Shown here piece by piece: positions 35,197 to 52,555 of a DNA stretch of 53,748 nt. The stretch spans positions 1-53,748 of the forward strand of contig DATNIJ010000052.1 of the NCBI GenBank assembly GCA_035604475.1. The letters are read 5' to 3'. Both the position numbers and the translations under genes were made by a program. How positions within the stretch are numbered: the first letter of the stretch is position 1; every line of letters starts with the position of its first letter. The notes under the pieces were generated by a model. The model was not told the origin of the DNA, ran no database searches, and saw only the letters and a list, made by a program, of their open reading frames with translations. Origin of the DNA: Alphaproteobacteria bacterium. GTDB taxonomy: Bacteria; Pseudomonadota; Alphaproteobacteria; JACZXZ01.

Positions 35197-35230
35197 GGCG
35201 CCAGCGATCCGGCAGGAGGAATGGGCTCAG

Positions 35231-37762: not shown

Positions 37763-37918
37763 CTCTCCTCCGCAGCACCCTCGAACCCGGCCTTATGCGA
37801 GGCGGGCTCCCGTCCAGGCCAACGAGCCGTCGATGCGAAAGTGGGGACCGGTTGGCGCCGGACCTTCTACGAGGCGCCGCCGCAGCGGGCAAGGGTCACG
37901 TGCGTTCGCGACCCGCAC

Positions 37919-37952
37919 AAAAGGTTCCGGCGGTCACTTGCGCGACCGCCGG
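37919..37952 (-). terminator. Intrinsic terminator-like hairpin (also the first terminator downstream of the 38079-38588 gene)
   Basis: A 9-bp GC-rich stem CCGGCGGTC/GACCGCCGG with an 8-nt loop is followed on the minus strand by AACCTTTTG. Confidence 0.6.
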
Positions 37953-37983
37953 CTCTCTAATGTGCTGGGGAGGGACTAGAGAG
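37919..37983 (-). ncRNA. Candidate FNR-box-dependent small RNA with a CCCUCCCC loop
   Basis: Minus strand: CUCUCUA-GUCCCUCCCCAGCACAU-UAGAGAG (hairpin 1) is followed by CCGGCGGUC-GCGCAAGU-GACCGCCGG and AACCUUUUGUG (terminator). Hairpin 1 starts at the position 41.5 bp from the centre of the perfect FNR box at 38018-38031. There is no ORF. Confidence 0.5.
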
Positions 37984-38017
37984 GCCCCTTCCTTAGCACC
38001 TCGCCCCAGGCGGCGAT

Positions 38018-38031
38018 TTGATCCAGATCAA
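38018..38031. promoter_or_regulatory. FNR/FixK box (perfect consensus)
   Basis: TTGAT-CCAG-ATCAA. Confidence 0.8.
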
Positions 38032-38078
38032 TTTTAAGGCAGGATTCTTCAGGCGGCGAAATACTGTGCCGCAGGCGA

Positions 38079-38588
38079 TCATCCCTTAAGTCTCAGGGCG
38101 TTGACATGGGCCCTGGTTTCCGGGAGGAGCCGCTTGCACATGCCAATCCCCTCCGCCCCGTAGCCCGCTTGGAAAAAGGGGCCAAGCCGGCGCTCGTCGA
38201 GTGCTACGCGCGCGCCCTGCTGCTGCGCCACCATGACATGGACGGCCACGCAGTCCGTTTTACGGGCCAAGCTGTCGATGGCGGCGATGAGCGCCTCGGC
38301 CGCGCCGGCACCATCGACGAGATCGAGAGCGACGAAGTTTTCGACCCGAAACGTTCGTCCGTGCTGAATATCCGGCAGGATCCTGTAACTGAACAGGCCG
38401 TAGATGTAACCGTCTGCGCCCTGGGCCGCAATCAGCCCCGCCTCACGCTCTCGGCCGGTCGCGCACAGACTCCGCCCATGTGCGAGCCACTCACCAAGCC
38501 CGAGGCGGGGGGCTATCGCATGAACAAGCGGATAGACCTGCGGCAGCCGGCTTAGAGGAAGCGGGCGCACTTCGTATCGTCTGCCCAT
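38079..38588 (-). CDS. Hypothetical protein (possibly GNAT-fold)
   Basis: 169 aa from MGRRYEVRPLPLSRLPQVYPLV, the lower part of the 516-aa ORF 38079-39629. The composition looks coding. The family call is weak. Confidence 0.5.
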   Translation of the reverse strand: MGRRYEVRPLPLSRLPQVYPLVHAIAPRLGLGEWLAHGRSLCATGREREAGLIAAQGADGYIYGLFSYRILPDIQHGRTFRVENFVALDLVDGAGAAEALIAAIDSLARKTDCVAVHVMVAQQQGARVALDERRLGPFFQAGYGAEGIGMCKRLLPETRAHVNALRLKG

Positions 38589-38657
38589 CTCCGGAAACGA
38601 GCCCTTCGCTATGCATTTCGGACGCCTTAAGTAAGCCATAGCGGCATTGGACCGGCA

Positions 38658-38671
38658 TTGATATGAATCAA
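38658..38671. promoter_or_regulatory. FNR/FixK box (perfect consensus) in the divergent region upstream of the fnr-like gene
   Basis: TTGAT-ATGA-ATCAA. Its centre lies about 41.5 bp from plausible transcription starts in both directions (about 38623 on the minus strand and about 38706 on the plus strand). Confidence 0.8.
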
Positions 38672-38819
38672 GAATCGATGTATCTCCCCTATCCAGGATA
38701 CACTCGGCCGCCCGTGACGCCATGGCGAGCGAGGGGCCACCGCGCCCCGAAATTGTTTCGTTCGGCTGGGCGCAGTAGACTGGCGAGCGGCTGGGGTAGG
38801 ACTGGGGATCGGATCGGCA

Positions 38820-39554
38820 ATGGCCACACGAAGGCGAGCGGGACGAGATATCGCCGCCCGTGCGGTTGCGAGCCCATGCGCGGCTTGCAAGGTTCGCGAC
38901 ATCTCCGTTTGCAGCGCGCTCGACGCGGACGAGCTTGCTCGGCTCACGGCAATCATGAGCACGCTCGGGATGCAGCCGCAGCAGACGTTGTTCTATGAAG
39001 GCGACCCCGCCGAGTTCCTCTTCAACGTCACGGGCGGCATGATTCGGGTCCACAAGCTCTTGGCCGACGGCAGGCGTCAGGTCACCGGATTTCTCTATCC
39101 GGGCGATTTCGTCGGCCTCGCGGTCCACGACAGCTACGCCTATACGGCCGAAACCGTCGTCGCCACCAGCGTCTGCCGTTTCCCGCGCACCAAGCTCCAT
39201 GCGCTCATGCGCGAGATGCCGCATCTCGAGAACCGCATGCTCAGCATGGCCTCGAACGAGCTCATCGAGGCGCAGGACCAGATGCTCCTCCTGGGCCGCA
39301 AGACCGCGCAGGAGAAGATCGCCTCCTTCCTCTTGATGATATCGCGCCGCGCCGGCCGGCGCGGACAGCCCGACAATCCCATCCATCTGCCGATGGGACG
39401 CACGGACATTGCCGACTTTCTCGGGCTCACCACCGAGACGGTGAGTCGCGTCTTCACGCAGTTCAAGACCTCGGGTGCCATTCGCCTCCTCGACAACTCG
39501 CGCGTGCAGCTCTCCGACATGCGCGCGCTCGGCGCCACGGCACAAGGGAGCTAG
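38820..39554 (+). CDS. Crp/Fnr family regulator, FnrN/FnrL/AadR type with N-terminal Cys cluster
   Basis: The N-terminal C-X2-C-X7-C motif (SPCAACKVRDISVCS) and central Cys (VCRFP) fit an [4Fe-4S] O2 sensor. A cNMP-like barrel is present, and the HTH carries E..SR (TETVSRVF), the determinant that reads TTGAT half-sites. Confidence 0.85.
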   Translation: MATRRRAGRDIAARAVASPCAACKVRDISVCSALDADELARLTAIMSTLGMQPQQTLFYEGDPAEFLFNVTGGMIRVHKLLADGRRQVTGFLYPGDFVGLAVHDSYAYTAETVVATSVCRFPRTKLHALMREMPHLENRMLSMASNELIEAQDQMLLLGRKTAQEKIASFLLMISRRAGRRGQPDNPIHLPMGRTDIADFLGLTTETVSRVFTQFKTSGAIRLLDNSRVQLSDMRALGATAQGS

Positions 39555-39620
39555 CGGCCTGGAGAAATCTCGACAGCCCACCGCCTCGGGCCGGGGCCGG
39601 ATGAGCGCTTGCTCGGACCC

Positions 39621-39634
39621 TTGACCCAAGTCAA
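39621..39634. promoter_or_regulatory. FNR/FixK-type box upstream of the usp gene
   Basis: TTGAC-CCAA-GTCAA (TTGA-N6-TCAA). The predicted transcription start is about 39669, the -10-like hexamer TCTACT is at 39657-39662, and the usp ATG is at 39708. Confidence 0.7.
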
Positions 39635-39707
39635 TGAGCGCGCCTCTTTGCCAAGCTCTACTCCCGCCATCGCGCAGGATAAATGGATTTCAGCGGAGGA
39701 CCTCGTC

Positions 39708-40544
39708 ATGGCGTACAAGGATCTCCTTGTCCACCTGAACAACTCAAAGCATCGCGCCAGACGTCTCGATATCGCCATTCGGCTGGCACAAGCTTCGGAC
39801 GCCCATCTTGTCGGCCTGTATACCGCCACGGACCTCTTCGCGCCGGCCTTTCTCACTTCGCAGCTGGCGGCCGGGCTCATCGCCGCGCAACGCGGGCTTT
39901 TCGCCGACGAGCGCAACAAAGCCAAAGCCGAGTTCGAAGAGCGCGGACGCAAGGCCGGCATCAGTATCGAGTGGCGCGAGGTGGAGGAGGATAGCGGCGC
40001 GATGGCGACCCTCAACACGCGCTACGCCGACCTCGCGGTGATCGGCCAGCCCGACCCCGATGAGGCGCTCTCCCCCAAGGAGCTCGATCTCGCCGAACGC
40101 GTGGTGTTGGATTCGGGCCGGCCCATCCTCATGGTGCCCTATGCCGGCCGGTTTCCCACGCTCGGCCAGCGCGTGCTGATCGCCTGGAACGCCAGCGCGC
40201 AAGCGACGCGCGCCGTCAACGACGCCTTGCCGCTGCTTGCGCAGGCCAAGGCCATTACCGTGCTGGCCGTGAATCCGAGAGGCGGCGAGCGAGGCCACGG
40301 CGAGGTGCCGGGTGCGGATATAGCGCTCCATCTCGCGCGCCACGGCCTCAAGGCGGAAGCGGCGCACGCTTTCGCCGATGACATCGACGCCAGCGATGTC
40401 ATCCTCTCGCGCGCCTCCGACCTCGGCGTCGACCTCATTGTCATGGGCGCCTACGGCCGCCCCCGCCTGCGGGAACTGGTGCTGGGTGGCGTCACGCGCA
40501 GCCTGTTCCAGCACATGACGGTGCCCGTGCTCATGTCCCATTGA
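39708..40544 (+). CDS. Universal stress protein, tandem UspA domains
   Basis: Start at MAYKDLLVHLNN, preceded by GGAGGA. The C-terminal motif MGAYGRPRLRELVLGGVTRSLFQHMTVPVLMSH is the Usp ATP-binding G-2x-G-9x-G(S/T) region. Confidence 0.85.
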   Translation: MAYKDLLVHLNNSKHRARRLDIAIRLAQASDAHLVGLYTATDLFAPAFLTSQLAAGLIAAQRGLFADERNKAKAEFEERGRKAGISIEWREVEEDSGAMATLNTRYADLAVIGQPDPDEALSPKELDLAERVVLDSGRPILMVPYAGRFPTLGQRVLIAWNASAQATRAVNDALPLLAQAKAITVLAVNPRGGERGHGEVPGADIALHLARHGLKAEAAHAFADDIDASDVILSRASDLGVDLIVMGAYGRPRLRELVLGGVTRSLFQHMTVPVLMSH

Positions 40545-40668
40545 GGGAGCGCCCTGGCCGTAGTCGTCCCCTCGCGCGCCCATGTCATTCGGGCCATTGC
40601 GCGCGAGAGCGGGCAAGGCTGCTTGGCGAGCATCGTCTTCGCCATTTGGCCGCGCCCCCGAACTCGCC

Positions 40669-42018
40669 TCAAACGGCGACCGAATGCCGCGCGGTCCCCT
40701 CTTTGAGATAGCGGTCGAAGACGGCGCACACCGCGCGCACCAGCGGGCGTCCCGCCCTGGTCACGCGCAAATGGCCGTTCTCGAGCGTGACCACGCCGTC
40801 CTCGATCATTTGGTCGAGGGTCTTCCACTCTGCCAGGACCGAGCCGAAGGTGTGGCCGTAGGCGGCGCAGAGGCGCGCAACCGGCGCCTCGAGGAAGCAC
40901 ATGAGGCTCTCAATGATGTCGCGCCGCAGGCGATCGTCGTCCGCGAGCGCTATGCCGCGCGCCGTGGCAAAGGATGCGCGCCCGATCGCGTCCCCGTAGG
41001 CGCGCAGCTCGGTAGCGCTCTGCACATAGCCTTGGGGAAGCGAGCCGATGGCGGAAACTCCGAGGCCGATGAGCGTCTCCGCACCATCCGCCGTATAGCC
41101 CTGGAAATTGCGGCGCAGCTCGCCGCGCGCAAGGGCCAAGGCGAGCGCGTCATCGGCTCGCGCGAAGTGGTCGAGGCCGATCGCCACATAGCCGTGAGCT
41201 TCGAGCGTGGACGCGACCACTGCCATTTGACCGAGGCGCTCCTCGGCATCCGGCATGGCCTCCTCGGGCAGCAGGCGCTGGTGCCGCTTGAGCCACGGCA
41301 CGTGGGCATAGCCGAAAACGGCGAGCCGGTCGGGCGACAGCGTGAGCGCGCGCTCGACCGTTGCGGCGACGCTCCCGACCGTCTGGTAGGGCAGCCCGTA
41401 GAGGAGATCCAGATTGATTGAGGCAATGCCGTTCGCGCGCAGAGCGTCGATCGCTCGCGCCGTCACTTCATAGGGTTGGATGCGGTTGACGGCCTTCTGC
41501 ACCAATGGCGCGAAGTCCTGCACGCCGAGACTGGCCCGGTTGACGCCGGCCAGGCCGAGCGCCCGGGCCTGCTCCGCGCTCAGCACGCGGGGATCGATCT
41601 CGACGGCGAACGCCGCGTCGCCCGCGACGTCGAAGCGGTGCCGCAGCGCGTCGGCGAGGCGCTCGAAGTTGCTAGCGCTCAACGTCGTCGGCGTGCCGCC
41701 GCCGAGATGGATATGGCTCACCCGCGGCCGCCCTCCGATGCCATCTGCCACCATCTCGATCTCCTTGAGCAGGAGCTCGAGATACCGGTCGATGGGGCCG
41801 GATTTGTTGACGACGTGCATGTTGCAGCCGCAAAACCAGCAGAGCGAGCGGCAGAAGGGAATGTGCAGATAGAGCGAATAGGGCCCGGCCGTGCCGAGCT
41901 CGCCAAGCCAGGTGCCATAGCGGCGCGCGTCTACCTCGGGCCCGAAATGGGGAGCCGTGGGATAGCTCGTATAGCGCGGCACCGGCCGCGCATACCGCGA
42001 GAGAACGTCCGGCGTCAT
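40669..42018 (-). CDS. hemN: Oxygen-independent coproporphyrinogen III oxidase (radical SAM)
   Basis: Start at MTPDVLSRYARPVPRYTSYPTAPHF. The radical-SAM cluster motif is CRSLCWFCGC, and a HemN C-terminal domain is present. Confidence 0.9.
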   Translation of the reverse strand: MTPDVLSRYARPVPRYTSYPTAPHFGPEVDARRYGTWLGELGTAGPYSLYLHIPFCRSLCWFCGCNMHVVNKSGPIDRYLELLLKEIEMVADGIGGRPRVSHIHLGGGTPTTLSASNFERLADALRHRFDVAGDAAFAVEIDPRVLSAEQARALGLAGVNRASLGVQDFAPLVQKAVNRIQPYEVTARAIDALRANGIASINLDLLYGLPYQTVGSVAATVERALTLSPDRLAVFGYAHVPWLKRHQRLLPEEAMPDAEERLGQMAVVASTLEAHGYVAIGLDHFARADDALALALARGELRRNFQGYTADGAETLIGLGVSAIGSLPQGYVQSATELRAYGDAIGRASFATARGIALADDDRLRRDIIESLMCFLEAPVARLCAAYGHTFGSVLAEWKTLDQMIEDGVVTLENGHLRVTRAGRPLVRAVCAVFDRYLKEGTARHSVAV

Positions 42019-42054
42019 CGCAGCGAATGATGAGGCGACAGGCCCGGCCCGGCT

Positions 42055-42068
42055 TTGACCTAGATCAA
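42055..42068. promoter_or_regulatory. FNR/FixK-type box proximal to hemN
   Basis: TTGAC-CTAG-ATCAA. A -10-like CATCAT lies at 42032-42027 on the minus strand. The predicted transcription start is about 42020, essentially at the hemN ATG (42018). Confidence 0.75.
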
Positions 42069-42193
42069 AACCAGGCCGTGGCCCCTGGGGCCTGCGGCGC
42101 GCTTGCGGAGCGGCGCGGGTTCTCGCCGCGACTAGTCGACAGATCGGCCGCACGCGTCATTGCCGCGTCTGGCAAGCATGCGCGCCGCGTGGA

Positions 42194-42207
42194 TTGACCT
42201 ACATCAA
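42194..42207. promoter_or_regulatory. FNR/FixK-type box facing the devC-like operon
   Basis: TTGAC-CTAC-ATCAA. A -10-like CATGAT lies at 42229-42234. The predicted plus-strand transcription start is about 42242. Confidence 0.7.
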
Positions 42208-42412
42208 TGTCGGCTGAGCGCTGAAGTCCATGATGTTGCGCGATATTTGCGTCGAACGGGCTGCAGAAAACGATGCGCGATCGTTCATACGACCACCTAG
42301 GCGTGCCACAGCAAGCCCTGGGTGAAGGCCGAGAAGATGGGTTGAGCCGCAATCGCCGGCTTCGTGCCGCCCTGCGTGATTTCATCATGCTGCTCGCGGA
42401 GCCGGAAGTCCG

Positions 42413-43549
42413 ATGCCGGGGATCCTGAGGATCGCTTACAGGCTTTTGGTCAACGACCGGGCGAAGTTCGCAGCGCTTCTGGTCGGGATCACCTTCGCCG
42501 TGTTCCTGATGATCGAGATGACGTCGCTTTTCTCCGGGATTCTCAAGCGCTCGTCGGCGACCGTCATCAACATCGGCGCCTCGATTTGGGTGATGGACCC
42601 GTCGATCCAGACGGTTGCCAATACCATTCCGCTACCCGACTACGTCCTGGACGAGGTCCGCAGCATACCGGGCGTCAAATACGCCGTTCCCCTTTATTCC
42701 GGCGCCGCGCTGCTCAAACTGCGCGATGGTGTGTATCAGTCCGCCAATATCATTGGCCTCGACGATACCAGTCTGTTCGGAAGGCCGACGCTTCTTGCCG
42801 GAACCATTGAGGACATCTTCGCCGAGAACGCCTTCATCGCGGTCAGGGACTCCGAGTTCTACAAGCTCGAGAACCCGAAGATCGGCGCCGAGTTCGAGCT
42901 CAATGACCATCGCGGCGTAATCGTCGGCATCGCGCATGTCTCATCGAGCGGACTGTTCGGCGTGCCGACTCTCTACACGACCTACAACCGGGCACTGCAA
43001 TACATACCCAATATGCGCTTTACCATCTCCTACCTCCTCGTCGAGCCTAAAACGCCGACCGACGTGCCATTGATCAAGCAGCAGGTCGCGGCGGCAGGAT
43101 ATTTGGCCCTCACGAAAGACGAGTTCATCCAAAAGATCTCCGATTTCTACAAGTACCAGACCGGGATCGGGACCAACATGCTGCTGATGACGGTGATCAG
43201 CTTCATCATCGGAATGTCCATCTCGGGACAGACCTTCTATACCTTCATCCTCGAGAACCTCGACAAGTTCGGCGCACTCAAGGCGATTGGCGCCAAGGGG
43301 CGCGAGCTGATCTCCATGATCCTGTTTCAGGCGTCATTCGTGGCCTTGACGGGATATGGCATCGGCGTCGGGTTATGCGCTCTCGTGATATGGCTCGCTC
43401 GGATCTATCTTCCCGATTATGCGGCGATCATCACTTACGCCAACCTCGGCCTTGCCCTCGTCATGGTGGTCATCATCGCCGCATTCTCGAGTTACGTCGG
43501 AGTCCGCAAGGTCCTGAAAATCGAACCCTTCGACATTTTCCGAGGCTAG
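42413..43549 (+). CDS. ABC exporter permease, FtsX-like, DevC family
   Basis: 378 aa. It has an N-terminal TM segment, a large periplasmic domain and a C-terminal FtsX-type 3-TM bundle. The N-terminus RIAYRLLVNDRAKFAALLVGITFAVFL is DevC-like. Confidence 0.8.
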   Translation: MPGILRIAYRLLVNDRAKFAALLVGITFAVFLMIEMTSLFSGILKRSSATVINIGASIWVMDPSIQTVANTIPLPDYVLDEVRSIPGVKYAVPLYSGAALLKLRDGVYQSANIIGLDDTSLFGRPTLLAGTIEDIFAENAFIAVRDSEFYKLENPKIGAEFELNDHRGVIVGIAHVSSSGLFGVPTLYTTYNRALQYIPNMRFTISYLLVEPKTPTDVPLIKQQVAAAGYLALTKDEFIQKISDFYKYQTGIGTNMLLMTVISFIIGMSISGQTFYTFILENLDKFGALKAIGAKGRELISMILFQASFVALTGYGIGVGLCALVIWLARIYLPDYAAIITYANLGLALVMVVIIAAFSSYVGVRKVLKIEPFDIFRG

Positions 43550-43551
43550 TC

Positions 43552-44253
43552 ATGCCCAGGACGGCGATCCAGGCGGTTGGCCTCAATAAGTGGTTCGGCG
43601 AAGGCGACACCAAGACCCACGCCGTGAGGGACGTGAGCTTCGACGCCCATTTCGGCGAGATCCTTTACGTGGTCGGTCCGTCCGGCAGCGGCAAGACCAC
43701 GATGCTCAGCATGATCTCGGGAATCCTCCGGCCGAACACGGGCGCCGTGAAGATCGAGGATACCGAGATATGGAATCTCTCCGACGACGAGCTCGCCGAG
43801 TTCCGCCTGCACAAGATCGGCTTCGTGTTTCAGGACTACCATCTTTTCCCGCGGCTGACGACCGCCGAGAATGTTGCGATTCCGCTCATTCTCCAGAAGC
43901 GCGACTGGGACGAGGCTCTCAAGGAGGCGGTGCTTGATCTTGAGATCGTCGGGTTGAAGACCCGGGCGCAGCTGCCGCCGGTGAAGCTCAGCGGCGGAGA
44001 GCAGCAACGGGTCGCAATAGCCAGAGCCATCGTCGGCCGCCCCGACATCCTGATCCTCGACGAGCCGACCGCGTCGCTCGACGGCGATACCGGCCGGAAC
44101 ATCGTAACCTTCGTTCGACAGCACATTCTCTCCGACCAGCGCTGCATCGTCATCGTCACCCACGACGCTCGCATCTACGAGTTTGCCGACCGCATTCTGA
44201 AGATGGAGGACGGACGGGTGGTGGCCGTCGGACGGGAGCTTTTGGATGCCTAA
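43552..44253 (+). CDS. ABC exporter ATP-binding protein, DevA/MacB-ATPase-like
   Basis: Start at MPRTAIQAVGLNKWFGEG. Walker A GPSGSGKTT, signature LSGGEQQRVAIARA and Walker B ILILDEPT are present. Confidence 0.9.
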   Translation: MPRTAIQAVGLNKWFGEGDTKTHAVRDVSFDAHFGEILYVVGPSGSGKTTMLSMISGILRPNTGAVKIEDTEIWNLSDDELAEFRLHKIGFVFQDYHLFPRLTTAENVAIPLILQKRDWDEALKEAVLDLEIVGLKTRAQLPPVKLSGGEQQRVAIARAIVGRPDILILDEPTASLDGDTGRNIVTFVRQHILSDQRCIVIVTHDARIYEFADRILKMEDGRVVAVGRELLDA

Positions 44254-45331
44254 TAGGGTCATCTTCATCCTCTCGGCCCTGGGCCTGATCCTGGCGCTCG
44301 TCAGCGCCTTCATCTTCAGCGAGGAGCCGGGCGCGCAGCCGCCGGTCTTCAATCCGGCGGCCAATCCCTATGCCAAGGGGATCTACGCGAATGGCATCGT
44401 CGAGAGCGTCCAGGCGCAGGGCGAGAACATCAACATCTATCCCGAGGTCTCGGGACCGATCACAGAGGTCCTGGTTGCCGAAGGCGACAGGGTCCACAAG
44501 GGCGATCCGCTGCTGAAGATCGACGACACGGTGCAACGGGCGACAGCCGAACAGCAACGATCACAAGCGGAGGCAGCACTCGCGGTGCTTGCGGAGCTCA
44601 AGGCAGAGCCCAGGCAGGAGAACCTCGACGTGGTCACGGCCCAGGTCGAGAACGCCAAGGCAAGCCTCAAGAATGCGCAGGATCAGCTCGCCAAGCAGGA
44701 GCGATCCTATGCGCTCGACCCGAAATCGGTCAGCCTTGAGGCGTTGGATAACGCAAGGAATGCCGAGAAAATAGCGGACACAAACCTCAAGGTCGTCCAG
44801 AAGCAATACGCCCTGACCAAGGCAGGCGCCTGGATCTACGATATCCAGAACCAGGAGAAGCAATACGCCGCCCTATCGAAAGCGTATGCGGCTTCCGCGG
44901 CGCTGCTCGCTAAATATACCATCATGGCGCCTACGGATGGCGTGGTGCTCTCGCTTCAGGCCGCTGTCGGCAGCTACGTCTCGTCACAAGGCGCCTACGA
45001 TTCCTATACTCAAGGGTTGAACCCGCTCATCGTCATGGGCACGCCGGACGCTCAACTGCAAGTCCGCGCCTATATCGATGAGATATTGGTTCACCGTCTG
45101 GCCGATCCGGCCAAGATGGACGCCCAGATGTTCATCCGCGGCACCGACATCCATGTGCCGCTGACGTTTGCGCGCATCCAGCCCTATGTCTCGCCGAAGA
45201 TCGAGCTCTCCAATGAGCGGCTGGAGCGGGTCGATGTCCGGGTGCTGCCGGTGATTTTCCGTTTCGAAAGGCCTAAAGGCCTGAACCTCTATCCGGGGCA
45301 GTTGGTCGATGTCTATGTCGGCGAGAAATAG
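44246..45331 (+). CDS. HlyD-family periplasmic adaptor (DevB-like membrane fusion protein)
   Basis: It has an N-terminal TM segment (VIFILSALGLILALVSAFIF), a lipoyl-like motif (VAEGDRVHKGDPLLKIDD), a coiled-coil hairpin and a beta-barrel domain. Its start overlaps the ATPase stop. Confidence 0.85.
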   Translation: MPNRVIFILSALGLILALVSAFIFSEEPGAQPPVFNPAANPYAKGIYANGIVESVQAQGENINIYPEVSGPITEVLVAEGDRVHKGDPLLKIDDTVQRATAEQQRSQAEAALAVLAELKAEPRQENLDVVTAQVENAKASLKNAQDQLAKQERSYALDPKSVSLEALDNARNAEKIADTNLKVVQKQYALTKAGAWIYDIQNQEKQYAALSKAYAASAALLAKYTIMAPTDGVVLSLQAAVGSYVSSQGAYDSYTQGLNPLIVMGTPDAQLQVRAYIDEILVHRLADPAKMDAQMFIRGTDIHVPLTFARIQPYVSPKIELSNERLERVDVRVLPVIFRFERPKGLNLYPGQLVDVYVGEK

Positions 45332-46847
45332 GCGCCAGCACATAGCGCTGCCGCATCGCCTGCCCGACGCGCCCGTCATGGGGCTCGCCAGCGGCGTCGC
45401 ACTGCTTTGCCTCTTGTCCGGCTGCGCCGTCGGCCCGGACTTTCTGCGCCCCGCTGCGCCGCCGGTCACCCATTATTCGAATGGCGCGGACCCCGAGGTG
45501 ACCGCTTCCGTCGGCGGCACGGCGCAGCACTTCGCCCCCGGAGCGAAGGTCGCCGCCGATTGGTGGCGCCTTTTCAACTCCTCGCAGCTCGACGCGGTCA
45601 TCTCGGAAGCGATCGCCAACAACCCCGGGCTCGAGGCGGCGCAGGCAAGCCTGCGCCAGAGCCAGAACAACTTGCGTAGCGGGTATGGCATCTTCTACCC
45701 GGAAATCGACGCCAATGCCGGAGCCACGCGACAGAGGTACAACCCGATCAAGGCCGGGCAGGATATGCCGGCGAGCGTGTTCAATCTCTTCACGCTTTCG
45801 GCCACGGTGAGCTACGCCCTCGATGTCTTTGGCGGAGAGCGGCGCATGGTCGAGGGTCTGGGTGCGGAGGTCGACGTGGCCCGCGCCACGGAGCAGGCGA
45901 CCTATCTCACGCTCTCCGCCAACATCGCAAATACGGTGATCGCCAAGGCGGCTTATCGCGCCGAGATCGAAGCCACGGCGCAACTCATTGAGCAGCAAAA
46001 GGAACAGGTCGCTCTGGCCGAAGTCCAAGCGCAAGCCGGGACGGTGCCCTATTCCAACGTCTTGAGCCTCCGCAGCCAGCTTGCCTCCTACGAAGCGACG
46101 GTTCCGCAGCTCGAGCAGAAGCTCACGCAAAGCGACGACCTGCTCGCCACGCTCGCCGGCCATACGCCGGCCGAGTGGAGCCCGCCGGAAGTCGACTTGG
46201 CCGATCTCGTATTGCCGAGCGACCTGCCGGTCAGCCTTCCCTCCGATCTCGTGCGCCAGCGTCCGGACATCCTTGCAGCCGAGGCGACGGCTCATGCCGC
46301 CAGCGCCAACATCGGCGTCGCGACCGCGGCACTTTTGCCGAGCGTCACGTTGAGCGGAAGCCTGGGGACCAACGGCACATCGACAAGCAACCTATTCGCC
46401 GCCAATGGAAATTTCTGGAGCATCGGCGCCAACGCGGTGCAGCCGCTGTTCGACGGCGGAACATTATGGTTCAAGCGCAAAGCGGCGATCGACAATTATC
46501 AGCAGGCGATGGCCACTTACCGCCAGACGGTCCTGAGCGCATTTGGACAGGTGGCCGACACGCTTCGCGCGCTCGACCACGACGCCGCGGTTCTCCGAGC
46601 GGAGGAGGAAGCACTCTCAACCGCGGATCAGGCTTTGCATCTGGTGCAGGCCAACTACAAAGCAGGGCTCGCGACCTATCTTGATGTCTTGATTGCGGAT
46701 GCACAATACCAACAAGCGAAAATCGCCGACCTGCAGGCGCTCGCCGTGCGCTATCAGGACACCGCCGCGCTATTCGCCGCGCTCGGCGGCGGCTGGTGGA
46801 ACGCGAAGCGCGAAGATGCCAGCGCAGACGGATCAAAAGGCGATTGA
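45309..46847 (+). CDS. Efflux outer-membrane factor lipoprotein, NodT family
   Basis: The lipobox LLCLLSGCAVGPDF and duplicated OEP/TolC-type repeats are present. The start may be 45378 (MGLASGV..). Confidence 0.9.
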   Translation: MSMSARNRRQHIALPHRLPDAPVMGLASGVALLCLLSGCAVGPDFLRPAAPPVTHYSNGADPEVTASVGGTAQHFAPGAKVAADWWRLFNSSQLDAVISEAIANNPGLEAAQASLRQSQNNLRSGYGIFYPEIDANAGATRQRYNPIKAGQDMPASVFNLFTLSATVSYALDVFGGERRMVEGLGAEVDVARATEQATYLTLSANIANTVIAKAAYRAEIEATAQLIEQQKEQVALAEVQAQAGTVPYSNVLSLRSQLASYEATVPQLEQKLTQSDDLLATLAGHTPAEWSPPEVDLADLVLPSDLPVSLPSDLVRQRPDILAAEATAHAASANIGVATAALLPSVTLSGSLGTNGTSTSNLFAANGNFWSIGANAVQPLFDGGTLWFKRKAAIDNYQQAMATYRQTVLSAFGQVADTLRALDHDAAVLRAEEEALSTADQALHLVQANYKAGLATYLDVLIADAQYQQAKIADLQALAVRYQDTAALFAALGGGWWNAKREDASADGSKGD

Positions 46848-47023
46848 GTGGCCGTCCCGAGCTTCTCCGCCAGGTAGCTGCGAAGGCGGACTACGGTTTG
46901 CGGACGAGGGTGCGCCGCCCGGAAGAGCGCCAGCGACCGCACGCGCGCCCAGCCGACCGGATCCGCCGGCAGCAGGACGGTTCCGGGGCGGATTTCCATT
47001 GCGCGCTGCGAGCCCTTACACCT

Positions 47024-47365
47024 TCAAGTGCTTCCTTTTTTGCGGCCGTAGCGAATGACGGAGACCTTTTGCAGGGTTACCAGGGCGCTGTCGACCATAT
47101 CATCGAGGACCGGGAGGAATTCCTTGATCTTCTCGTCGGTATCGACAATGTCGATGACGATCGGAAGATCCTCGGACAGCCGAAGCACGATTCGAAGTTC
47201 CTGGCTTGCAGGACCATAGGCCAACACTCCGCGCGTGACCGTGGCTCCCGCCATTTCCATGGCGCGCGCCTTGAGCACGATCTGATCGTGCAAAGGTTTG
47301 TTGTCAAACGTATCGTCGTAGCCGACGAAGATGCGGAGCAGGGTTGCGTCGCATGGGGCGTGCAT
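47024..47365 (-). CDS. DUF190 (UPF0166, PII-like fold) protein
   Basis: 113 aa. LLRIFVGYDDTFDNKPLHDQIVLKARAMEMAGATVTRGVLAYGP is the family's core. GAGGAG lies 9 nt upstream of the ATG. Confidence 0.8.
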   Translation of the reverse strand: MHAPCDATLLRIFVGYDDTFDNKPLHDQIVLKARAMEMAGATVTRGVLAYGPASQELRIVLRLSEDLPIVIDIVDTDEKIKEFLPVLDDMVDSALVTLQKVSVIRYGRKKGST

Positions 47366-47771
47366 TTTGGGCGGCTCCTCGAAGAACGCCGATCGATCAC
47401 TTCAGGGAACGAATGCAGACGATAAGCTGCCTTATTTGCGCTGGTCGCAGGGCAATGGGCGATATCCGTAGCAGTTGTCGAGTGCGCCGTCCAATCCCTG
47501 CCCGGTAAGCTTCCCCTCCGTGTTGAGCTTGGGAAGGATGGGGCAGCAAGGGTGCTGAGGGGACAACGATAGTCATGACCTGCTGGGGTGGACGGCCCCC
47601 GCGCCCGCCATCGGCGCGCCGCCCGCGGACACAGAAAGAGGTACGCGCACTTCGCTGAGGCCGTGCGCGACAACGTCACCATCACCCTCTATTGCGACGG
47701 CTTGCTCGCGGGCCCATAGAGAGACCGGACGCCGCGGTTCGCGTCGCGAGCGAGCCGCGGCGGCGGTTTCC

Positions 47772-48170
47772 TCACACCTTTTCCGCCTCGTGCCGCGTGG
47801 TTTGCGGCGCCGCGGGGAAACCCACGCGCGCCGCCTGGGCGAAGAGGCCGGAGAGCTTGCCCGCGTACTCGAGGTACTGCGTCGTCGCCCGTTCGGCGAA
47901 GCGGCGCTGGCAGTCGAAGGCCTCGCTTTGGCTGCGGCACCCTCGGAGAGTCTCGCAGGCGGCAAGATCCTCCTTGAAGCGCTCGAGCGAGAAGCGCGCC
48001 ATCTCGCAGGAAAGATCGAACATTCCCTTGGTCATCGCCTCGCTCGCCTTCGCCCACTGGTCGAACGACACTCGGCTGTTCTCGAGGAATTGCGCGTAGC
48101 CGCCGAACCAAGCCGCCGGGTCCGGCATGCCTGGAAACGCTTTCGCCTCGCTTGTCGATTTTGCTGCCAT
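47772..48170 (-). CDS. Phasin-family-like protein (unusually Cys-containing)
   Basis: 132 aa, predicted all-helical, with ..FLENSRVSFDQWAKASEAMTKGMFDL...RRFAERATTQYLEYAGKLSGL.. resembling Phasin_2-type proteins. GGGAGA SD is present. It neighbours phaC. Confidence 0.55.
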   Translation of the reverse strand: MAAKSTSEAKAFPGMPDPAAWFGGYAQFLENSRVSFDQWAKASEAMTKGMFDLSCEMARFSLERFKEDLAACETLRGCRSQSEAFDCQRRFAERATTQYLEYAGKLSGLFAQAARVGFPAAPQTTRHEAEKV

Positions 48171-48224
48171 GACAGTTCTCCCATCCCGATGGCTTATCTA
48201 TAGCCACCCGGGCTGAGCGCCGCA

Positions 48225-48238
48225 TTGACCCAGGTCAA
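48225..48238. promoter_or_regulatory. FNR/FixK-type box upstream of the phasin-like gene
   Basis: TTGAC-CCAG-GTCAA. A -10-like TATAGA lies at 48202-48197 on the minus strand. The predicted transcription start is about 48190, 20 nt before the ATG at 48170. Confidence 0.7.
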
Positions 48239-48276
48239 ATTCAGGCGGACGCGTAGCCGCCTCGGCGTGGGCTTCC

Positions 48277-48290
48277 TTGACCTAAATCAT
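48277..48290. promoter_or_regulatory. FNR/FixK-like box (one half degenerate) facing the 48389 gene
   Basis: TTGAC-CTAA-ATCAT. The predicted plus-strand transcription start is about 48325. Confidence 0.5.
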
Positions 48291-48388
48291 TGGCTGTCCG
48301 CAGCGCCGGTGGGAGACTTGTGCTTTCAGTCCGATGGTCGATGGGAAGCGGTCGGCCCGAAACATCTGCGAAGCAGCGGAGACCCGTC

Positions 48389-49015
48389 ATGGACCAGCTG
48401 GCGTTCAGGAATCCTACAGAGGGCGAGCCGACGGCGATCGCCATCCGGCTTAGCCGCCTGCAGCAACTCTTCAACTCCTTCGATCCCTCGCCCTTTCACG
48501 AAAAGGACCTCGATCAGGATGCCGAGGAGTATATCGTGGGCTCGGTCGACGACTTCCCGTTGCCAAGGCCGCTCAAACTCGTGCTTCAGCTGCCCGCCGA
48601 CCAGCTTGCGGTCGCCCAGGCACTCCACCTCGAGGCTGGGATCCACAACTATTTCACCTATCGCTCCGGCGAGGCGCGCCGGCGCATGCGCTTCCTCTTC
48701 CGCGAGGGGCGCATCGCATTGTTGATCGGTCTCGCCTTCCTCTTCATGTGCACGCTCGTGCGCCAGATCGCCTTCACGCTCTGGCCCAACGCCGCGGCGC
48801 AGACCCTCGCGGAGGGCCTGCTCATCGTCGGTTGGGTCGCGATGTGGCGGCCGCTCCAGATCTTTCTCTACGACTGGTGGCCGATCCGGCATCAATGCCG
48901 CCTCTTTGCCAAGCTCGCCGAGATGCCGGTCGAAATGCGTGCCGCGGACGCGCTCCCCTTCCAGGTGCACGAGAGGGCGGGAACCGACGAGCCACAGCGC
49001 CCCTCCGCCTCGTGA
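48389..49015 (+). CDS. Hypothetical membrane protein
   Basis: Start chosen at MDQLAFRNP. The soluble N-terminal part has FNSFDPSPFHEKDLDQDAEEYIV, followed by two or three hydrophobic segments (IALLIGLAFLFMCTLV, LLIVGWVAMWRPLQIFLY). I recognise no family. Confidence 0.6.
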   Translation: MDQLAFRNPTEGEPTAIAIRLSRLQQLFNSFDPSPFHEKDLDQDAEEYIVGSVDDFPLPRPLKLVLQLPADQLAVAQALHLEAGIHNYFTYRSGEARRRMRFLFREGRIALLIGLAFLFMCTLVRQIAFTLWPNAAAQTLAEGLLIVGWVAMWRPLQIFLYDWWPIRHQCRLFAKLAEMPVEMRAADALPFQVHERAGTDEPQRPSAS

Positions 49016-49105
49016 AGGAGGCAAAGCGGGCCAGGAGTCTCAAGCAAATCGTCCCGGCGCGCCGGGGGGCACCCGCCCGGACGCCTCTCCCCGTCTTCCC
49101 GGTCA

Positions 49106-49119
49106 TTGATCTGGCGCAA
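49106..49119. promoter_or_regulatory. Weak FNR-like half-site box upstream of phaC
   Basis: TTGAT-CTGG-CGCAA: the left half is perfect and the right half is poor. It is correctly spaced from a good -10 (CATATA/TATAAA at 49142-49149). Confidence 0.3.
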
Positions 49120-49189
49120 TGCGCTTGCGCCGGCGCCGCACCATATAAAGGCCAACCGCTCGCGCGCAGAGGCCGAGGAGGGTAAAGCG

Positions 49190-51199
49190 ATGACGCAATC
49201 GGCAAGTAATGAGGTCCGCGAACCCCCGGCAGAGGCGGGGTCTGAAGCTCCGTCTACGCTCCCGGACCAAAAGCGGGAAGCACCAAGGGCGCCTTCAGAG
49301 CGAGCGGCAAAACGCGGCGCCAAGGGCGAGCAGGCGCCGGCCTGGCCGCCCCTCTGGCAAGCCGGCAACGATCAGCTCCTTCCCGCGATGGAAAAATACG
49401 CCGAGCTCTTCGGGCTACGCCGCTGGGTTGACACGGCCGTGAAGAGCATGGCCCCGGATGCGTCGGACGCTCCCGATCCGAGCGAAGGGCCTCGCAGCAT
49501 CGACCGGCTCGTGCATTCGGCCGTCGGAAAGGCCACCCTCTCCATCTCGCCGGTTTCCTTGGCGCTTGCCTATTTCGACTGGGCCGCGCACCTTGCGATG
49601 TCGCCCGGCAAGCAGGCGATCCTCGCGGAGAAGGCGCTGCGCAAGGCGACCCGCTTCGGCATCCACGTCTCGCGCGCGCTCGCCGAGCCGACGACACCGC
49701 CATGCATAGCACCCCTGCCCCACGATCGGCGCTTCGACCACCCCGATTGGCAGAAGTTCCCCTTCCGCTTCATCTATCAGTCGTTTCTCCTGACCCAGCA
49801 GTGGTGGCACAACGCCACAACGGGCGTGCACGGCGTCTCGCGCCATCACGAGCAAGTGGTTTCGTTCGCCACGCGCCAACTGCTCGATATTGTCTCGCCG
49901 TCGAACTTCGTGCCGACAAATCCCGAGATCCTGCAGCTGACGATGAAGCAAGGCGCGCGCAATCTCGCGCAGGGGGCGTTCAACTGGGTCGAGGACTGGG
50001 AACGCGCGATCGCCGGCCGTCCGCCCGTCGGCAGCGAGGCATTCCGCCCCGGCCGCGACATCGCGCTCACCCCGGGCGTCGTCGTCTATCGCAACCGGCT
50101 TATCGAGCTCATCCAATACAAGCCCGCAACCAGCGAGGTTCAGGCCGAGCCGGTGCTGATCGTGCCGGCATGGATCATGAAATATTATATCCTGGACCTC
50201 TCCCCGCATAACTCCCTGGTCAAGTACCTCGTCGAACGCGGCCATACCGTGTTCATGGTTTCCTGGCACAATCCCGGCGCCGACGATCGCGATCTCGGTA
50301 TGGGGGACTATCTGGGCCTGGGCGTGCTCTCGGCGCTCAGGGCGATCCGCGCCATCGTGCCCGGACGCAAGGTCGACGCGGTCGGCTATTGCCTCGGCGG
50401 CACGCTGCTCGCGATCGCCGCGGCCTGGCTCGCCCGCAAGCGGGACGAGCAGCTCAACACGGTTTCCCTCTTCGCGGCACAGGTCGACTTCACTGAGGCC
50501 GGCGAGCTCACGCTCTTCATGGACGAGAGCCAGCTTGCCCATATCGAGGACACGATGTGGGACCAGGGCTACCTGGATGCCAAGCAGATGGCCGGCGCCT
50601 TCCAACTCCTGCGCTCGAACGACCTCATCTGGTCGCGCCTCGTGCGCGACTATCTGCGCGGCGAGCGCGACCCCATGACCGACCTCATGGCATGGAACGC
50701 CGATGCGACGCGCTTGCCCTACCGCATGCACAGCGAATACCTGCGCCGCCTCTTCCTCAACAACGACCTCGTCGAGGGGCGCTACGAGGTAGGGGGCAAG
50801 CCGCTGTCACTCGGCGACATCCGCGTTCCCGTCTTCGCGGTCGCGACGGAGAGCGACCACGTGGCGCCGTGGCGCTCGGTCTACAAGCTCAACCTGCTGC
50901 TCGACACGGCGGTGAGCTTCCTGCTCACGAGCGGCGGTCACAATGCCGGCATCGTGAGCGAGCCGGGACATTCGCAGCGCTCCTATCGCCTCTTGCAGCG
51001 CAAGGCCGGCGATAGATACCTCGATCCGGAGACCTGGTACGCCGCGGTCTCGGCGACGGAGGGCTCGTGGTGGCCGGTTTGGGCGGAGTGGCTCGAAGCC
51101 CATGACAGCGGCAAGTCGCCGCCGCCCAATCTCGGCGCCGCCGACAAGGACTATCCGCCGCTGGGTCCAGCACCCGGTCGCTACGTGCTGGAAACATAG
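49190..51199 (+). CDS. phaC: Class I poly(3-hydroxyalkanoate) synthase
   Basis: Start at MTQSASNE after GAGGAGGG. The lipase-box-like GYCLGG has the catalytic Cys, and the conserved ..PLLIVPAWIMKYYILDL-type block (here PVLIVPAWIMKYYILDL) and the C-terminal catalytic D/H region are present. The N-terminal ~70 aa are low-complexity. Confidence 0.9.
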   Translation: MTQSASNEVREPPAEAGSEAPSTLPDQKREAPRAPSERAAKRGAKGEQAPAWPPLWQAGNDQLLPAMEKYAELFGLRRWVDTAVKSMAPDASDAPDPSEGPRSIDRLVHSAVGKATLSISPVSLALAYFDWAAHLAMSPGKQAILAEKALRKATRFGIHVSRALAEPTTPPCIAPLPHDRRFDHPDWQKFPFRFIYQSFLLTQQWWHNATTGVHGVSRHHEQVVSFATRQLLDIVSPSNFVPTNPEILQLTMKQGARNLAQGAFNWVEDWERAIAGRPPVGSEAFRPGRDIALTPGVVVYRNRLIELIQYKPATSEVQAEPVLIVPAWIMKYYILDLSPHNSLVKYLVERGHTVFMVSWHNPGADDRDLGMGDYLGLGVLSALRAIRAIVPGRKVDAVGYCLGGTLLAIAAAWLARKRDEQLNTVSLFAAQVDFTEAGELTLFMDESQLAHIEDTMWDQGYLDAKQMAGAFQLLRSNDLIWSRLVRDYLRGERDPMTDLMAWNADATRLPYRMHSEYLRRLFLNNDLVEGRYEVGGKPLSLGDIRVPVFAVATESDHVAPWRSVYKLNLLLDTAVSFLLTSGGHNAGIVSEPGHSQRSYRLLQRKAGDRYLDPETWYAAVSATEGSWWPVWAEWLEAHDSGKSPPPNLGAADKDYPPLGPAPGRYVLET

Positions 51200-51299
51200 C
51201 GCCCAAGTACGCTGAGCGACGCTGCGTTCCCGCGAGGCGGCGGCGGCCGAAGAGGAGCCATGCGTCGCCGTAAACCTCGGCGCGCCGCCGGCCCGAGAT

Positions 51300-51313
51300 T
51301 TGACATAGATCAC
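51300..51313. promoter_or_regulatory. FNR/FixK-like box upstream of the second usp gene
   Basis: TTGAC-ATAG-ATCAC. A -10-like CATAAG lies at 51336-51341. The predicted transcription start is about 51348, and the ATG is at 51372 after GGAGG. Confidence 0.6.
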
Positions 51314-51371: not shown

Positions 51372-52223
51372 ATGTCGATCAAGACCATCCTGGCGCCGAT
51401 CACGGGCCACGAGGCCACGAGTGCCGCGCTGGCGAGCGGCATGCGCCTGGCAAAGCGGCTCGGGGCCTTCGTCGAGGTGCTGCACGCGCAGCAGGATCCG
51501 CGAGAGAGCGTTCCATTCATTGCCGAGGGCGCGCTCACCTCGGTCATCGACCAGTATATCGCCCAGGCCGAGAGCGAGGCCGAGGCGCGGCGCGGCGCGG
51601 CTGAGCGGATTTGCGAGGAAGCCGCTCGAGCAGCTGGCGTGCCGGCGACAGGTCCTGGGGCCGTCCTGCGCTTCGATTCGATCCTCGGGAGCGCTGCCCA
51701 AGAGGTGTCCACGCGCGGACGGGTTGCCGATTTGATCCTTGTCGGCCGCGTGCCCGACGATCGGGAGGTCGAGTGGCGCCTCATGGTCGAGGCAGCACTC
51801 ATCGAAAGCGGCCGGCCTGTGCTTCTCATGCCGGCCGCGACGCGCGAGCTCGCGGGCGTCACCGTAGCGATTGCCTGGAACGGCAGCATGGAGGCGGCGC
51901 GCGCGACGAGTGCGGCACTTCCCATCCTTCACTTGGCAAAGCACATCCTCATCCTCAGCGGCGCCAAGGATGCGCCCGTCGAGCCCTCGCCTAGCCGGGT
52001 CGGCGAATGGCTTGCGCGCCACGGCATCGCGGCCAAACGCAGAAGCGTGGCGCTCGAGGGCTGGCCGGTCGGCGAGCAGCTCGTCAGCGAGGCGGCGGGT
52101 GCGGGGGCCGAGCTTCTCGTGATGGGCGCTTATGGCCATACCCGCATGCGCGAGACCATCTTCGGTGGGGCTACCCGGAGCGTACTCAACGAATCGAGCC
52201 TGCCGGTCCTGTTCGCCCATTGA
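51372..52223 (+). CDS. Universal stress protein, tandem UspA domains
   Basis: 283 aa. The C-terminal MGAYGHTRMRETIFGGATRSVLNESSLPVLFAH is the Usp nucleotide-binding motif. It is a paralogue of 39708-40544. Confidence 0.85.
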   Translation: MSIKTILAPITGHEATSAALASGMRLAKRLGAFVEVLHAQQDPRESVPFIAEGALTSVIDQYIAQAESEAEARRGAAERICEEAARAAGVPATGPGAVLRFDSILGSAAQEVSTRGRVADLILVGRVPDDREVEWRLMVEAALIESGRPVLLMPAATRELAGVTVAIAWNGSMEAARATSAALPILHLAKHILILSGAKDAPVEPSPSRVGEWLARHGIAAKRRSVALEGWPVGEQLVSEAAGAGAELLVMGAYGHTRMRETIFGGATRSVLNESSLPVLFAH

Positions 52224-52255: not shown

Positions 52256-52555
52256 ATGCTGACCTGGGAAGATTGCGTGGCGCTTTGCGCACTCAACGAG
52301 GCGGAGATCGAGGCGATCGCCGAGCACGAGCACATTCCCGAGGTCCCCGCACTCCTGCTTGGCGACTACCTCTGTCACACCTCGACGGGCGAACGCGCAA
52401 TCCGGCGCATCATTCTCGACGACCTCTCCGCGGCGCGGCAGAGGGGCGATGTCCGGCACGTGCTGGCGCTGCTGCGCACGCTCCAGCACTTCGTGGCGAC
52501 TCATCCCAAGGCGCGCGAGACCGCCCGCGACGCGACGGTGCCGCGCCAGGTCTGA
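52256..52555 (+). CDS. Hypothetical small protein
   Basis: 99 aa, with ATG 8 nt after GAGGAGAG and 32 nt after the usp stop (probably co-transcribed). I recognise no family. Confidence 0.55.
   Translation: MLTWEDCVALCALNEAEIEAIAEHEHIPEVPALLLGDYLCHTSTGERAIRRIILDDLSAARQRGDVRHVLALLRTLQHFVATHPKARETARDATVPRQV

Follow-up and report, generated by a model that had tools for sequence, protein, structure and literature searches.

The window considered here is the whole 53.7-kb stretch of DNA that was analysed, contig C52 of a 3.97-Mb alphaproteobacterial assembly (G000; 372 contigs, 93% complete), and from 34.3 to 52.6 kb it holds a probable low-oxygen regulon island. Within the island a gene for a Crp/Fnr regulator (fnr) stands among genes for stress proteins, haem synthesis, polyhydroxyalkanoate (PHA) storage and an exporter, and these are interspersed with palindromic FNR-type boxes of the form TTGA-N6-TCAA. 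Nine boxes, six of them perfect and three with one mismatch, lie where an initial annotation of this DNA had placed them; a tenth, before the small heat-shock gene hsp20 at 34338, had been omitted, and with it the island reaches further than was then described. The boxes are listed below together with the predicted -10 element (distance from the box edge), the distance from the box centre to the start codon, and, for the imperfect boxes, the score in bits against the position weight matrix (PWM) described further on.

34338-34351, TTGATCCATGTCAT: one mismatch, before hsp20, 14.3 bits; -10 AATATT at 22 nt; 82.5 nt from the ATG
38018-38031, TTGATCCAGATCAA: perfect, promoter element for a candidate minus-strand small RNA
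38658-38671, TTGATATGAATCAA: perfect, common to two divergent genes; 76.5 nt from the ATG of the GNAT-fold gene, 155.5 nt from that of fnr
39621-39634, TTGACCCAAGTCAA: perfect, 5' of usp1; -10 TCTACT at 22 nt; 80.5 nt from the ATG at 39708
42055-42068, TTGACCTAGATCAA: perfect, hemN; -10 CATCAT at 22 nt; 43.5 nt from the ATG
42194-42207, TTGACCTACATCAA: perfect, devCAB-omf operon; -10 CATGAT at 21 nt; 212.5 nt from the devC start, 171-nt leader
48225-48238, TTGACCCAGGTCAA: perfect, phasin gene; -10 TATAGA at 22 nt; 61.5 nt from the ATG, 20-nt leader
48277-48290, TTGACCTAAATCAT: one mismatch, membrane-protein gene, 17.1 bits; 105.5 nt from the ATG
49106-49119, TTGATCTGGCGCAA: weak, one mismatch, 5' of phaC, 11.2 bits; -10 TATAAA at 24 nt; 77.5 nt from the ATG
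51300-51313, TTGACATAGATCAC: one mismatch, 5' of usp2, 15.9 bits; -10 CATAAG at 22 nt; 65.5 nt from the ATG

The genes that these boxes precede, with the matches by which they were assigned, are as follows.

34427-34993, plus strand: hsp20, small heat-shock protein (sHSP; Hsp20/alpha-crystallin; Pfam HSP20, 2.9e-26)
38079-38588, minus strand: GNAT-fold protein of 169 aa, from its predicted fold; no Pfam or NCBIfam match
38820-39554, plus strand: fnr, Crp/Fnr regulator (Pfam cNMP_binding 6e-16, HTH_Crp_2 1e-16, Crp 2e-13)
39708-40544, plus strand: usp1, tandem universal stress protein (Usp; Pfam Usp in two stretches)
40669-42018, minus strand: hemN, oxygen-independent coproporphyrinogen III oxidase (NCBIfam TIGR00538, 467.9 bits versus a 325-bit cut-off)
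42413-43549, plus strand: DevC-like FtsX/MacB permease (Pfam; devC 63 versus 290 bits)
43546-44253, plus strand: DevA-like ATP-binding cassette (ABC) ATPase (Pfam; DevA 211 versus 296 bits)
44246-45331, plus strand: HlyD-family adaptor (Pfam; DevB 28 versus 129 bits)
45309-46847, plus strand: NodT-family outer-membrane factor (OMF; outer_NodT 465 bits versus a 210-bit cut-off)
47772-48170, minus strand: phasin (Pfam Phasin_2, 4e-10)
48389-49015, plus strand: membrane protein with two transmembrane segments, of no known family (homologue clusters)
49190-51199, plus strand: phaC, class I-like PHA synthase (Pfam PhaC_N, PHBC_N, Abhydrolase_1; NCBIfam PHA_synth_I 544 bits, below its 622-bit cut-off)
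51372-52223, plus strand: usp2, tandem Usp (Pfam Usp)

For usp1 the start codon was set by the reading frame together with a Shine-Dalgarno sequence, GGAGGA. Family matches and box geometry bear out what had been assigned from the letters alone, namely the regulator and its divergent neighbour, the two tandem-Usp genes, hemN, the DevCAB-like exporter with its NodT-family OMF, the phasin, the membrane protein of no known family and phaC. The exporter shares a DevBCA-type architecture, while by NCBIfam score its genes are not members of the DevC, DevA and DevB families.

The boxes are far in excess of expectation. A pattern search counted seven perfect boxes in the window versus 0.30 expected, a count reached in none of 100 dinucleotide-preserving shuffles of the window. 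The whole assembly has 72 perfect boxes, 47 of which are intergenic or at most 150 nt from a gene 5' end, as placed by a crude gene caller based on third-codon-position G+C (GC3) that makes ~83% of the DNA coding. The intergenic boxes have the refined form TTGA[TC]N4[AG]TCAA, which occurs 38 times genome-wide, and since 34 of these 38 sites fall outside deep coding sequence (intergenic or at a gene 5' end) the motif behaves as a regulatory site throughout the genome; sites elsewhere precede genes of a low-oxygen type, among them those for a 2-oxoacid:ferredoxin oxidoreductase, a cytochrome c, a BON-domain protein and 5-aminolevulinate synthase. Six perfect boxes lie within 10.2 kb in the island, the runner-up cluster being three in 8 kb (C308), and a scan-corrected Poisson estimate (probability times windows) for the six-box cluster is ~2e-5. 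With a PWM whose training set was the 28 sites on contigs other than C52 and a threshold of at least 14 bits at non-coding positions, nine of the 64 sites genome-wide fall within the 17 kb of the island (34338-51300) and the next cluster has three, for a corrected p of ~5e-9. The exceptional density first noticed in the window thus holds against the genome as a whole, and the island is the densest box cluster of an assembly whose fragmentation means that clusters elsewhere could be split across short contigs. No longer dispersed repeat containing the 14-bp boxes was found.

Promoter geometry points the same way. As a surrogate for transcription start sites we took, for each box and in both directions, the best TATAAT match 20-24 nt from the box edge. 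At least four of six positions match at seven of the ten target promoters versus 4.1% of random positions, and the search discriminates orientation, the opposite direction at double-box regions scoring only 1-2 of six. The claim that a -10-like hexamer stands 22 bp from every box was therefore sound for these seven targets, given the range of 20-24 nt, and overstated as a rule. Predicted leaders are mostly 20-64 nt long, those of fnr (114 nt) and devC (171 nt) being longer, and from its place ahead of fnr box 38658 implies autoregulation. It had further been claimed that the predicted start lies 20-170 nt from a start codon in every case, which fails at two boxes: that at 38018 has no coding sequence in promoter range, and that at 42055 leaves hemN a leader of only ~2 nt. 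The latter distance was measured to the only hemN start that fits the conserved N-terminus, and hemN in congener G005 and in the distant L009 has the same 41.5-nt box geometry without a Shine-Dalgarno sequence. Because the geometry is kept in both without a Shine-Dalgarno sequence, the hemN mRNA is very probably leaderless or near-leaderless.

Conservation, the regulator and its paralogues

In the genomes of three congeneric species with 92-96% DNA identity (L001-L003) every box is found at its syntenic place. Box columns are invariant at 124 of 126 positions versus 1290 of 1580 other intergenic columns (98% vs 82%, Fisher p = 1.2e-8); half-site columns are invariant throughout (90/90), and the only changes within boxes fall in the spacer of the hsp20 box. 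The boxes at 38018 and 39621 are invariant in all three loci and that at 49106 in L001, and those at 48225 and 48277 are conserved in G001-G003. Further away, the G007 locus (L004; FNR 68% identical) has the order GNAT-fold gene, box, fnr, box, usp, with TTGATATGCATCAA at the position matching box 38658 and, after usp, what we take to be cco genes. In L004 and L034 the usp homologue likewise has a box ahead of it, and phaC boxes at 72-77 nt are present in L105 and L032 as well. Box-dense clusters equal in density occur in relatives, and in L032, an unrelated metagenome-assembled genome (MAG), seven perfect boxes surround fnr within 7.6 kb, together with Usp, cytochromes c, VIT1 and phaC.

Within the genus the island is not fixed in content. 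G005 has an island of its own, with a boxed usp1-like gene, a FixK-like regulator, a usp2-like gene, a gene of the endonuclease/exonuclease/phosphatase (EEP) family (a 62% homologue) and devCAB-omf, and this difference in content indicates that the clustering has been rebuilt differently within one genus. In the devCAB-omf operon of G005 the box, the CATGAT -10 element and the spacing of 212.5 nt are all retained, with another gene as the upstream neighbour. In the window the G+C content falls to 0.59-0.64 at devCAB-omf (42000-48000), and protein identity to the G005 orthologues is 85-92% for devCAB-omf but only 60-71% for hemN, usp1 and the lactonase gene just left of the island. These figures suggest that the exporter cassette was exchanged recently between members of the genus.

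The regulator has the cysteine arrangement C-X2-C-X7-C (C-A-A-C-X7-C) at residues 20-32, a fourth cysteine in SVCRF, and the recognition helix ETVSR (TETVSRVF), which is of the E--SR type that reads TTGA. It aligns over its full length with Aliivibrio fischeri FNR, cysteines 1, 2 and 4 being in register with the ligands and the third shifted two residues relative to its ligand; such a two-residue shift is typical of FnrN and FnrL. With FixK2 it aligns only across the C-terminal, Cys-less part. The best NCBIfam model is FnrL (NF045989), followed by Caulobacter FixK and enterobacterial Fnr; its score of 186.6 bits does not reach the 300-bit FnrL equivalog cut-off, and because the best model is at the same time sub-threshold the term FnrL-type is justified and the term FnrL orthologue is not. 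Judged by these motifs, the protein is a sensor-regulator of the FnrL/FnrN type, not of the FixK2 type. The cysteine cluster and the E--SR helix had been read correctly at the outset; the regulator has four cysteines and is not of the Cys-less FixK2 type to which the locus had been likened.

Binding, oxygen dependence and the direction of regulation we infer from the established FNR mechanism. At low oxygen the regulator would assemble a [4Fe-4S] cluster on its four cysteines and dimerise, and the dimer would act as a class II activator, bound to TTGA-N6-TCAA palindromes whose centres precede transcription starts by ~41.5 bp, and so turn on about ten transcription units. These would be hsp20; a small RNA with a C-rich anti-Shine-Dalgarno loop, possibly with read-through to the EEP gene; the GNAT-fold gene and the divergent fnr; the tandem Usp gene usp1; leaderless hemN; the DevCAB-like exporter with its NodT OMF; the phasin; the membrane protein; the PHA synthase; and usp2 with the small open reading frame (ORF) that follows it. 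Their joint effect would be non-growing survival at low oxygen, PHA acting as an electron sink, Usp proteins and sHSP giving protection and hemN allowing oxygen-independent haem synthesis. We consider it highly likely that the island is a low-oxygen regulon of this kind, in which an FNR-type regulator acts on some ten class II promoters.

Several observations weigh against this interpretation. Among the -10 elements, those before fnr, the GNAT-fold gene and the membrane-protein gene are poor, with three of six matches, the phaC box is itself weak (11 bits), and the regulator falls short of the FnrL equivalog cut-off. The cbb3 oxidase, a canonical FNR target, was not found in this 93%-complete assembly. 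The genome has five more Crp/Fnr genes, and two of their products have an E--SR helix and could act at these boxes too: one, FixK-like and encoded on contig C91, has ETVSR just as the island regulator does, and the other, Dnr-like and encoded on C244, has ESLSR. G005 keeps the boxes with only FixK-like regulators, its best match to the island FNR being 44% identical. As to the distribution of cbb3 oxidase genes in the genus (FixO; CcoN as a COX1 match), they were also not found in G003, which is 100% complete, and are present in G001, G002 and G005.

The paralogues open an alternative in which the boxes are read mainly by the FixK-like protein, which lacks a Cys cluster and would be under a FixLJ-type sensor kinase, or jointly by FixK, FnrL and Dnr types, so that the neighbouring FnrL-type gene would be one input only, or itself a target in the cascade. 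FNR, FixK and DNR target sequences are indistinguishable in alphaproteobacteria (PMC2908626), and which regulator reads which box is not a matter that sequence can decide. The G005 homologues of usp, EEP and devCAB-omf, as well as its small RNA, adjoin FixK-like regulators, and no close FnrL orthologue was found there; the C91 paralogue also appears to suit the FixK2-type class better than the island regulator does. (A reading of the C91 gene as an N-terminally truncated pseudogene was rejected, the truncation being the contig end.) Set against this, the FnrL-type gene lies inside the island behind its own box, the order GNAT-fold gene, box, fnr, box, usp is kept with four-Cys regulators in G007, L046, L009 and L010, and no FixL or FixJ turned up here, in analyses that included no search aimed at them. 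We therefore think reading by the FixK-like paralogue, alone or jointly, rather unlikely, and continue with the FnrL/FnrN-type protein as the probable regulator of the island. An origin of the palindromes in chance, composition or dispersed-repeat remnants, with no regulatory role, is effectively refuted by the shuffles, by corrected probabilities of 2e-5 to 5e-9, by the mostly intergenic sites conserved above background, and by the lack of any repeat beyond the 14-bp boxes.

A candidate small RNA behind the box at 38018

The initial annotation had counted box 38018 among those with a start codon 20-170 nt from the predicted transcription start. The box lies beyond the end of the GNAT-fold gene, 262 nt away from the EEP start, with no coding sequence at promoter distance, and a small RNA on the minus strand, in the direction of the EEP gene, accounts for it best.

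37921-37985, minus strand: candidate small RNA of ~65 nt (hairpins, fold z-score, congener homologue)
36773-37762, minus strand: EEP-family gene (Pfam Exo_endo_phos, 1.1e-14)

From 34 nt past the box the candidate folds into a first hairpin of 7 bp (CUCUCUA/UAGAGAG), whose 17-nt loop contains CCCUCCCC, and a terminator-like, GC-rich hairpin of 11 bp (37952-37927) followed by the tail AACCUUUUGU; the fold z-score is -4.7. With E <= 1 and both strands searched, no Rfam family matches it, a spurious hit to an internal ribosome entry site excepted. In G005 a homologue adjoining a FixK-like gene and a phasin gene has a perfect box at the same distance, the same hairpin with its CCCUCCCC loop, and a U8 tail. 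Across four distinct sequences 72 of 72 pair cells are paired, two pairs being compensatory, as compared with 33-46% in slid controls. A covariance model finds the RNA only in this genus (G000, G001, G002, G003 and G005, among the order's 11 genomes). Its matches in G006, a family-level relative, were rejected as unrelated tandem hairpin repeats; the ends of the G006 contigs C44 and C205 (L099 1-200, L103 end) carry tandem 58-nt units with a GC-rich hairpin (GCGGCGGCCGGAAACGGCCGCCGGC).

On this evidence we lean towards a free-standing, FNR-dependent small RNA behind box 38018. The box could instead be the EEP promoter with a 221-nt structured leader, or the hairpin could be the terminator of the GNAT-fold gene, with no free small RNA in either case. 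The U-tract after the hairpin is weak here (UUUUGU) and degraded in G003 and G001, which makes read-through into EEP (start 37762) plausible, the EEP homologue belongs to the G005 island, and the hairpin lies 127-152 nt 3' of the GNAT-fold stop codon. Yet in G005 the box, hairpin, CCCUCCCC loop and terminator with U8 tail are not beside the EEP homologue, which is on another contig, and the stems change compensatorily around an invariant loop, and we think the reading as a leader or terminator rather unlikely.

More tentative than the small RNA itself is a mode of action in which its CCCUCCCC loop might pair with extended Shine-Dalgarno sequences (for example GGGGAGGG ahead of 5-aminolevulinate synthase), the GNAT-fold and membrane proteins standing alongside as unstudied, conserved FNR targets. 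If true, this would give the oxygen regulon a genus-level post-transcriptional arm, FnrS-like in its working and unrelated to FnrS. A search for targets through GGGGAGGG near start codons gave ~60 candidates, repeat elements included, and was too unspecific to use. The 5-aminolevulinate synthase gene (C99 13122-14339, minus strand; TIGR01821, 673 bits) has a one-mismatch FNR-type site at 14469, 136 nt upstream, and a Shine-Dalgarno region, GUGGGGAGGGUGAUG, that is fully complementary to the CCCUCCCC loop.

Partner genes and other features

The gene divergent from fnr encodes a protein whose AlphaFold2 model (pLDDT 81) retrieves only GNAT acetyltransferases in Foldseek (best E = 6e-8); as we read the family alignment, the usual acetyl-CoA loop motif is not conserved. 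A word-based search for homologues gave one close relative only. Homologues lie divergent from fnr in L004, L046, L009, L010, L007, L008 and L045 (Oceanibacterium hippocampi being included), with a box 52-77 nt from the start in six of seven lineages, L007/L008 having no perfect box there, and a paralogue on C360 has a box too. From this distribution the GNAT-fold gene appears to be a conserved divergent partner of fnr. A plus-strand ORF called there by the GC3 caller (38106-38555) was rejected, since homologues and a confidently predicted fold both favour the minus-strand gene.

The family of the membrane protein is very large: more than 7,698 homologue clusters were scored, which span phyla at 55-70% identity, bear the name 'hypothetical' throughout and lack any Pfam domain. 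The motifs of the protein are QQLFNSxDPSPFHEKDLD and GWVAMWRPLxIFLYxWWP. Its AlphaFold2 model (pLDDT 78) has no fold match in the PDB. Elsewhere the family again keeps company with boxes: in L104 (6001-6588) it is encoded in a box-preceded usp operon adjoining a second Usp gene that also has a box, and in L105 (6001-6579) it follows a Host_attach gene behind a box, near ABC and adaptor genes and a boxed phaC.

The remaining genes in and around the island are the following.

33142-34206, minus strand: lactonase (Pfam/NCBIfam)
35231-36721, plus strand: archaeal-type thymidine/AMP-phosphorylase-like protein (NF003338 684 bits; AMP_phos 488 bits, sub-cut-off)
47024-47365, minus strand: DUF190 (COG1993) small protein (Pfam DUF190, 1.7e-29)
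52256-52555, plus strand: 99-aa ORF after usp2 (homologue in L032)
52605-53495, minus strand: degenerate Usp-like protein

The DUF190 gene, absent from the initial annotation, is the most conserved stretch of the gap at 46.8-47.8 kb, with 2-4 substitutions per 100 nt versus 11-23 in the flanks; no box of its own was found. Two ORFs there, 46796-47425 (plus) and 47077-47685 (minus), were rejected as genes, the conserved element being the DUF190 gene. The box-dense island of L032 contains a homologue of the 99-aa ORF with 52% identity (6069-6353) and a box just downstream, which marks the ORF as a real conserved gene linked to Usp genes and FNR boxes. The thymidine/AMP-phosphorylase-like gene lies between hsp20 and EEP in the island and has no box of its own.

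Elsewhere in the genome, three proteins of ~230 aa that belong to no family are each encoded behind a perfect box (C168 2603-3283; C314 12963-13706, minus strand; C308 19713-20399). Two show a weak relationship to each other (28% over 93 aa), the one that was scanned has no Pfam match, and by eye they have in common a ...WHGF... motif reminiscent of 2-oxoglutarate-Fe(II) oxygenase-like folds. A dispersed palindrome, TCCCCC(T)TGAAGGGGGAGGG, occurs at many loci (e.g. C78 3491, C142 945, C171 4381), often overlapping predicted 5' ends, and is probably a repeat of the repetitive extragenic palindromic (REP) kind.

Comparison with known low-oxygen loci

Neither the physical clustering nor the mixture of PHA, Usp and exporter genes is unusual; both are known, from the lxa locus of Burkholderia cenocepacia, from the core FNR regulon of alphaproteobacteria and from unrelated MAGs. 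The core alphaproteobacterial FNR regulon includes fnr itself, uspA and hemN, and core regulons are often physically co-located (PMC2908626). The ccoNOQP-uspA-fnrL-hemN neighbourhood of Rhodobacter sphaeroides resembles the island in its boxed fnr, its neighbouring uspA and hemN targets, its TTGA-N6-TCAA boxes and the co-location of the regulator (PMC2908626), whereas the island has no cbb3 oxidase genes and adds PHA, exporter, sHSP and small-RNA units. That the island is assembled differently between congeners supports the published idea that core regulons both travel and grow as compact units.

PHA synthase genes are under Fnr, Anr, CydR or FixK2 in Herbaspirillum, Pseudomonas, Azotobacter and Bradyrhizobium (PMC5862806, PMC9049629), and in Bradyrhizobium diazoefficiens Usp proteins, PhaC2 and a phasin, with FixK2 targets among them, are induced under microoxic conditions (PMC6515984, PMC9049629). 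The FixLJ-FixK2 regulon of that species resembles the island in this respect and has the same box. It differs in that FixK2 has no N-terminal Cys cluster and depends on FixLJ, whereas the island regulator has the cluster, and in that its targets are dispersed over several loci while those described here are clustered. The candidate small RNA, for its part, is like FnrS of Escherichia coli and other FNR-activated small RNAs in being a short non-coding transcript behind an FNR box (PMC3688515, PMC3032703), and unlike FnrS in having no sequence or Rfam relationship to it, in its length of ~65 nt and its CCCUCCCC loop, and in that it was detected in one uncultured genus only.

What the island adds is modest. 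The candidate small RNA, the conserved GNAT-fold partner gene and the very large, uncharacterised membrane-protein family are new, and together with the leaderless hemN they appear worth following. The design of a low-oxygen survival island is extended to a deep, uncultured order of soil alphaproteobacteria, and a regulatory context, low oxygen, is suggested for the GNAT-fold gene, the membrane-protein family, DUF190, the 99-aa ORF and the DevCAB-like exporter. The understanding of FNR regulation is left unchanged.

The closest parallel is the lxa locus of Burkholderia cenocepacia J2315, a low-oxygen-induced cluster of 50 genes with an FNR-like inverted repeat at 17 intergenic points, which encodes six Usps along with an alpha-crystallin sHSP, a class I PHA synthase and transport proteins of the ABC and outer-membrane kinds (PMC3721108). 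Both are clustered loci of low-oxygen type with many intergenic FNR/Anr-like repeats, several Usps, an sHSP and a class I PHA synthase, with ABC, 'transport system' and outer-membrane transport genes, and with many genes that have no known function. They differ in that lxa is from a betaproteobacterium in which induction and a survival phenotype were measured, whereas the island is known from its sequence alone, and in that the island is smaller and has hemN, a candidate small RNA and its own four-Cys regulator. Compared by the published gene description rather than gene by gene through homology, the functional list of the island is almost the same as that of lxa, and in clustering and content alike it is lxa-like. 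The island adds one more case to a known class of low-oxygen survival loci, and as such is not very unusual.

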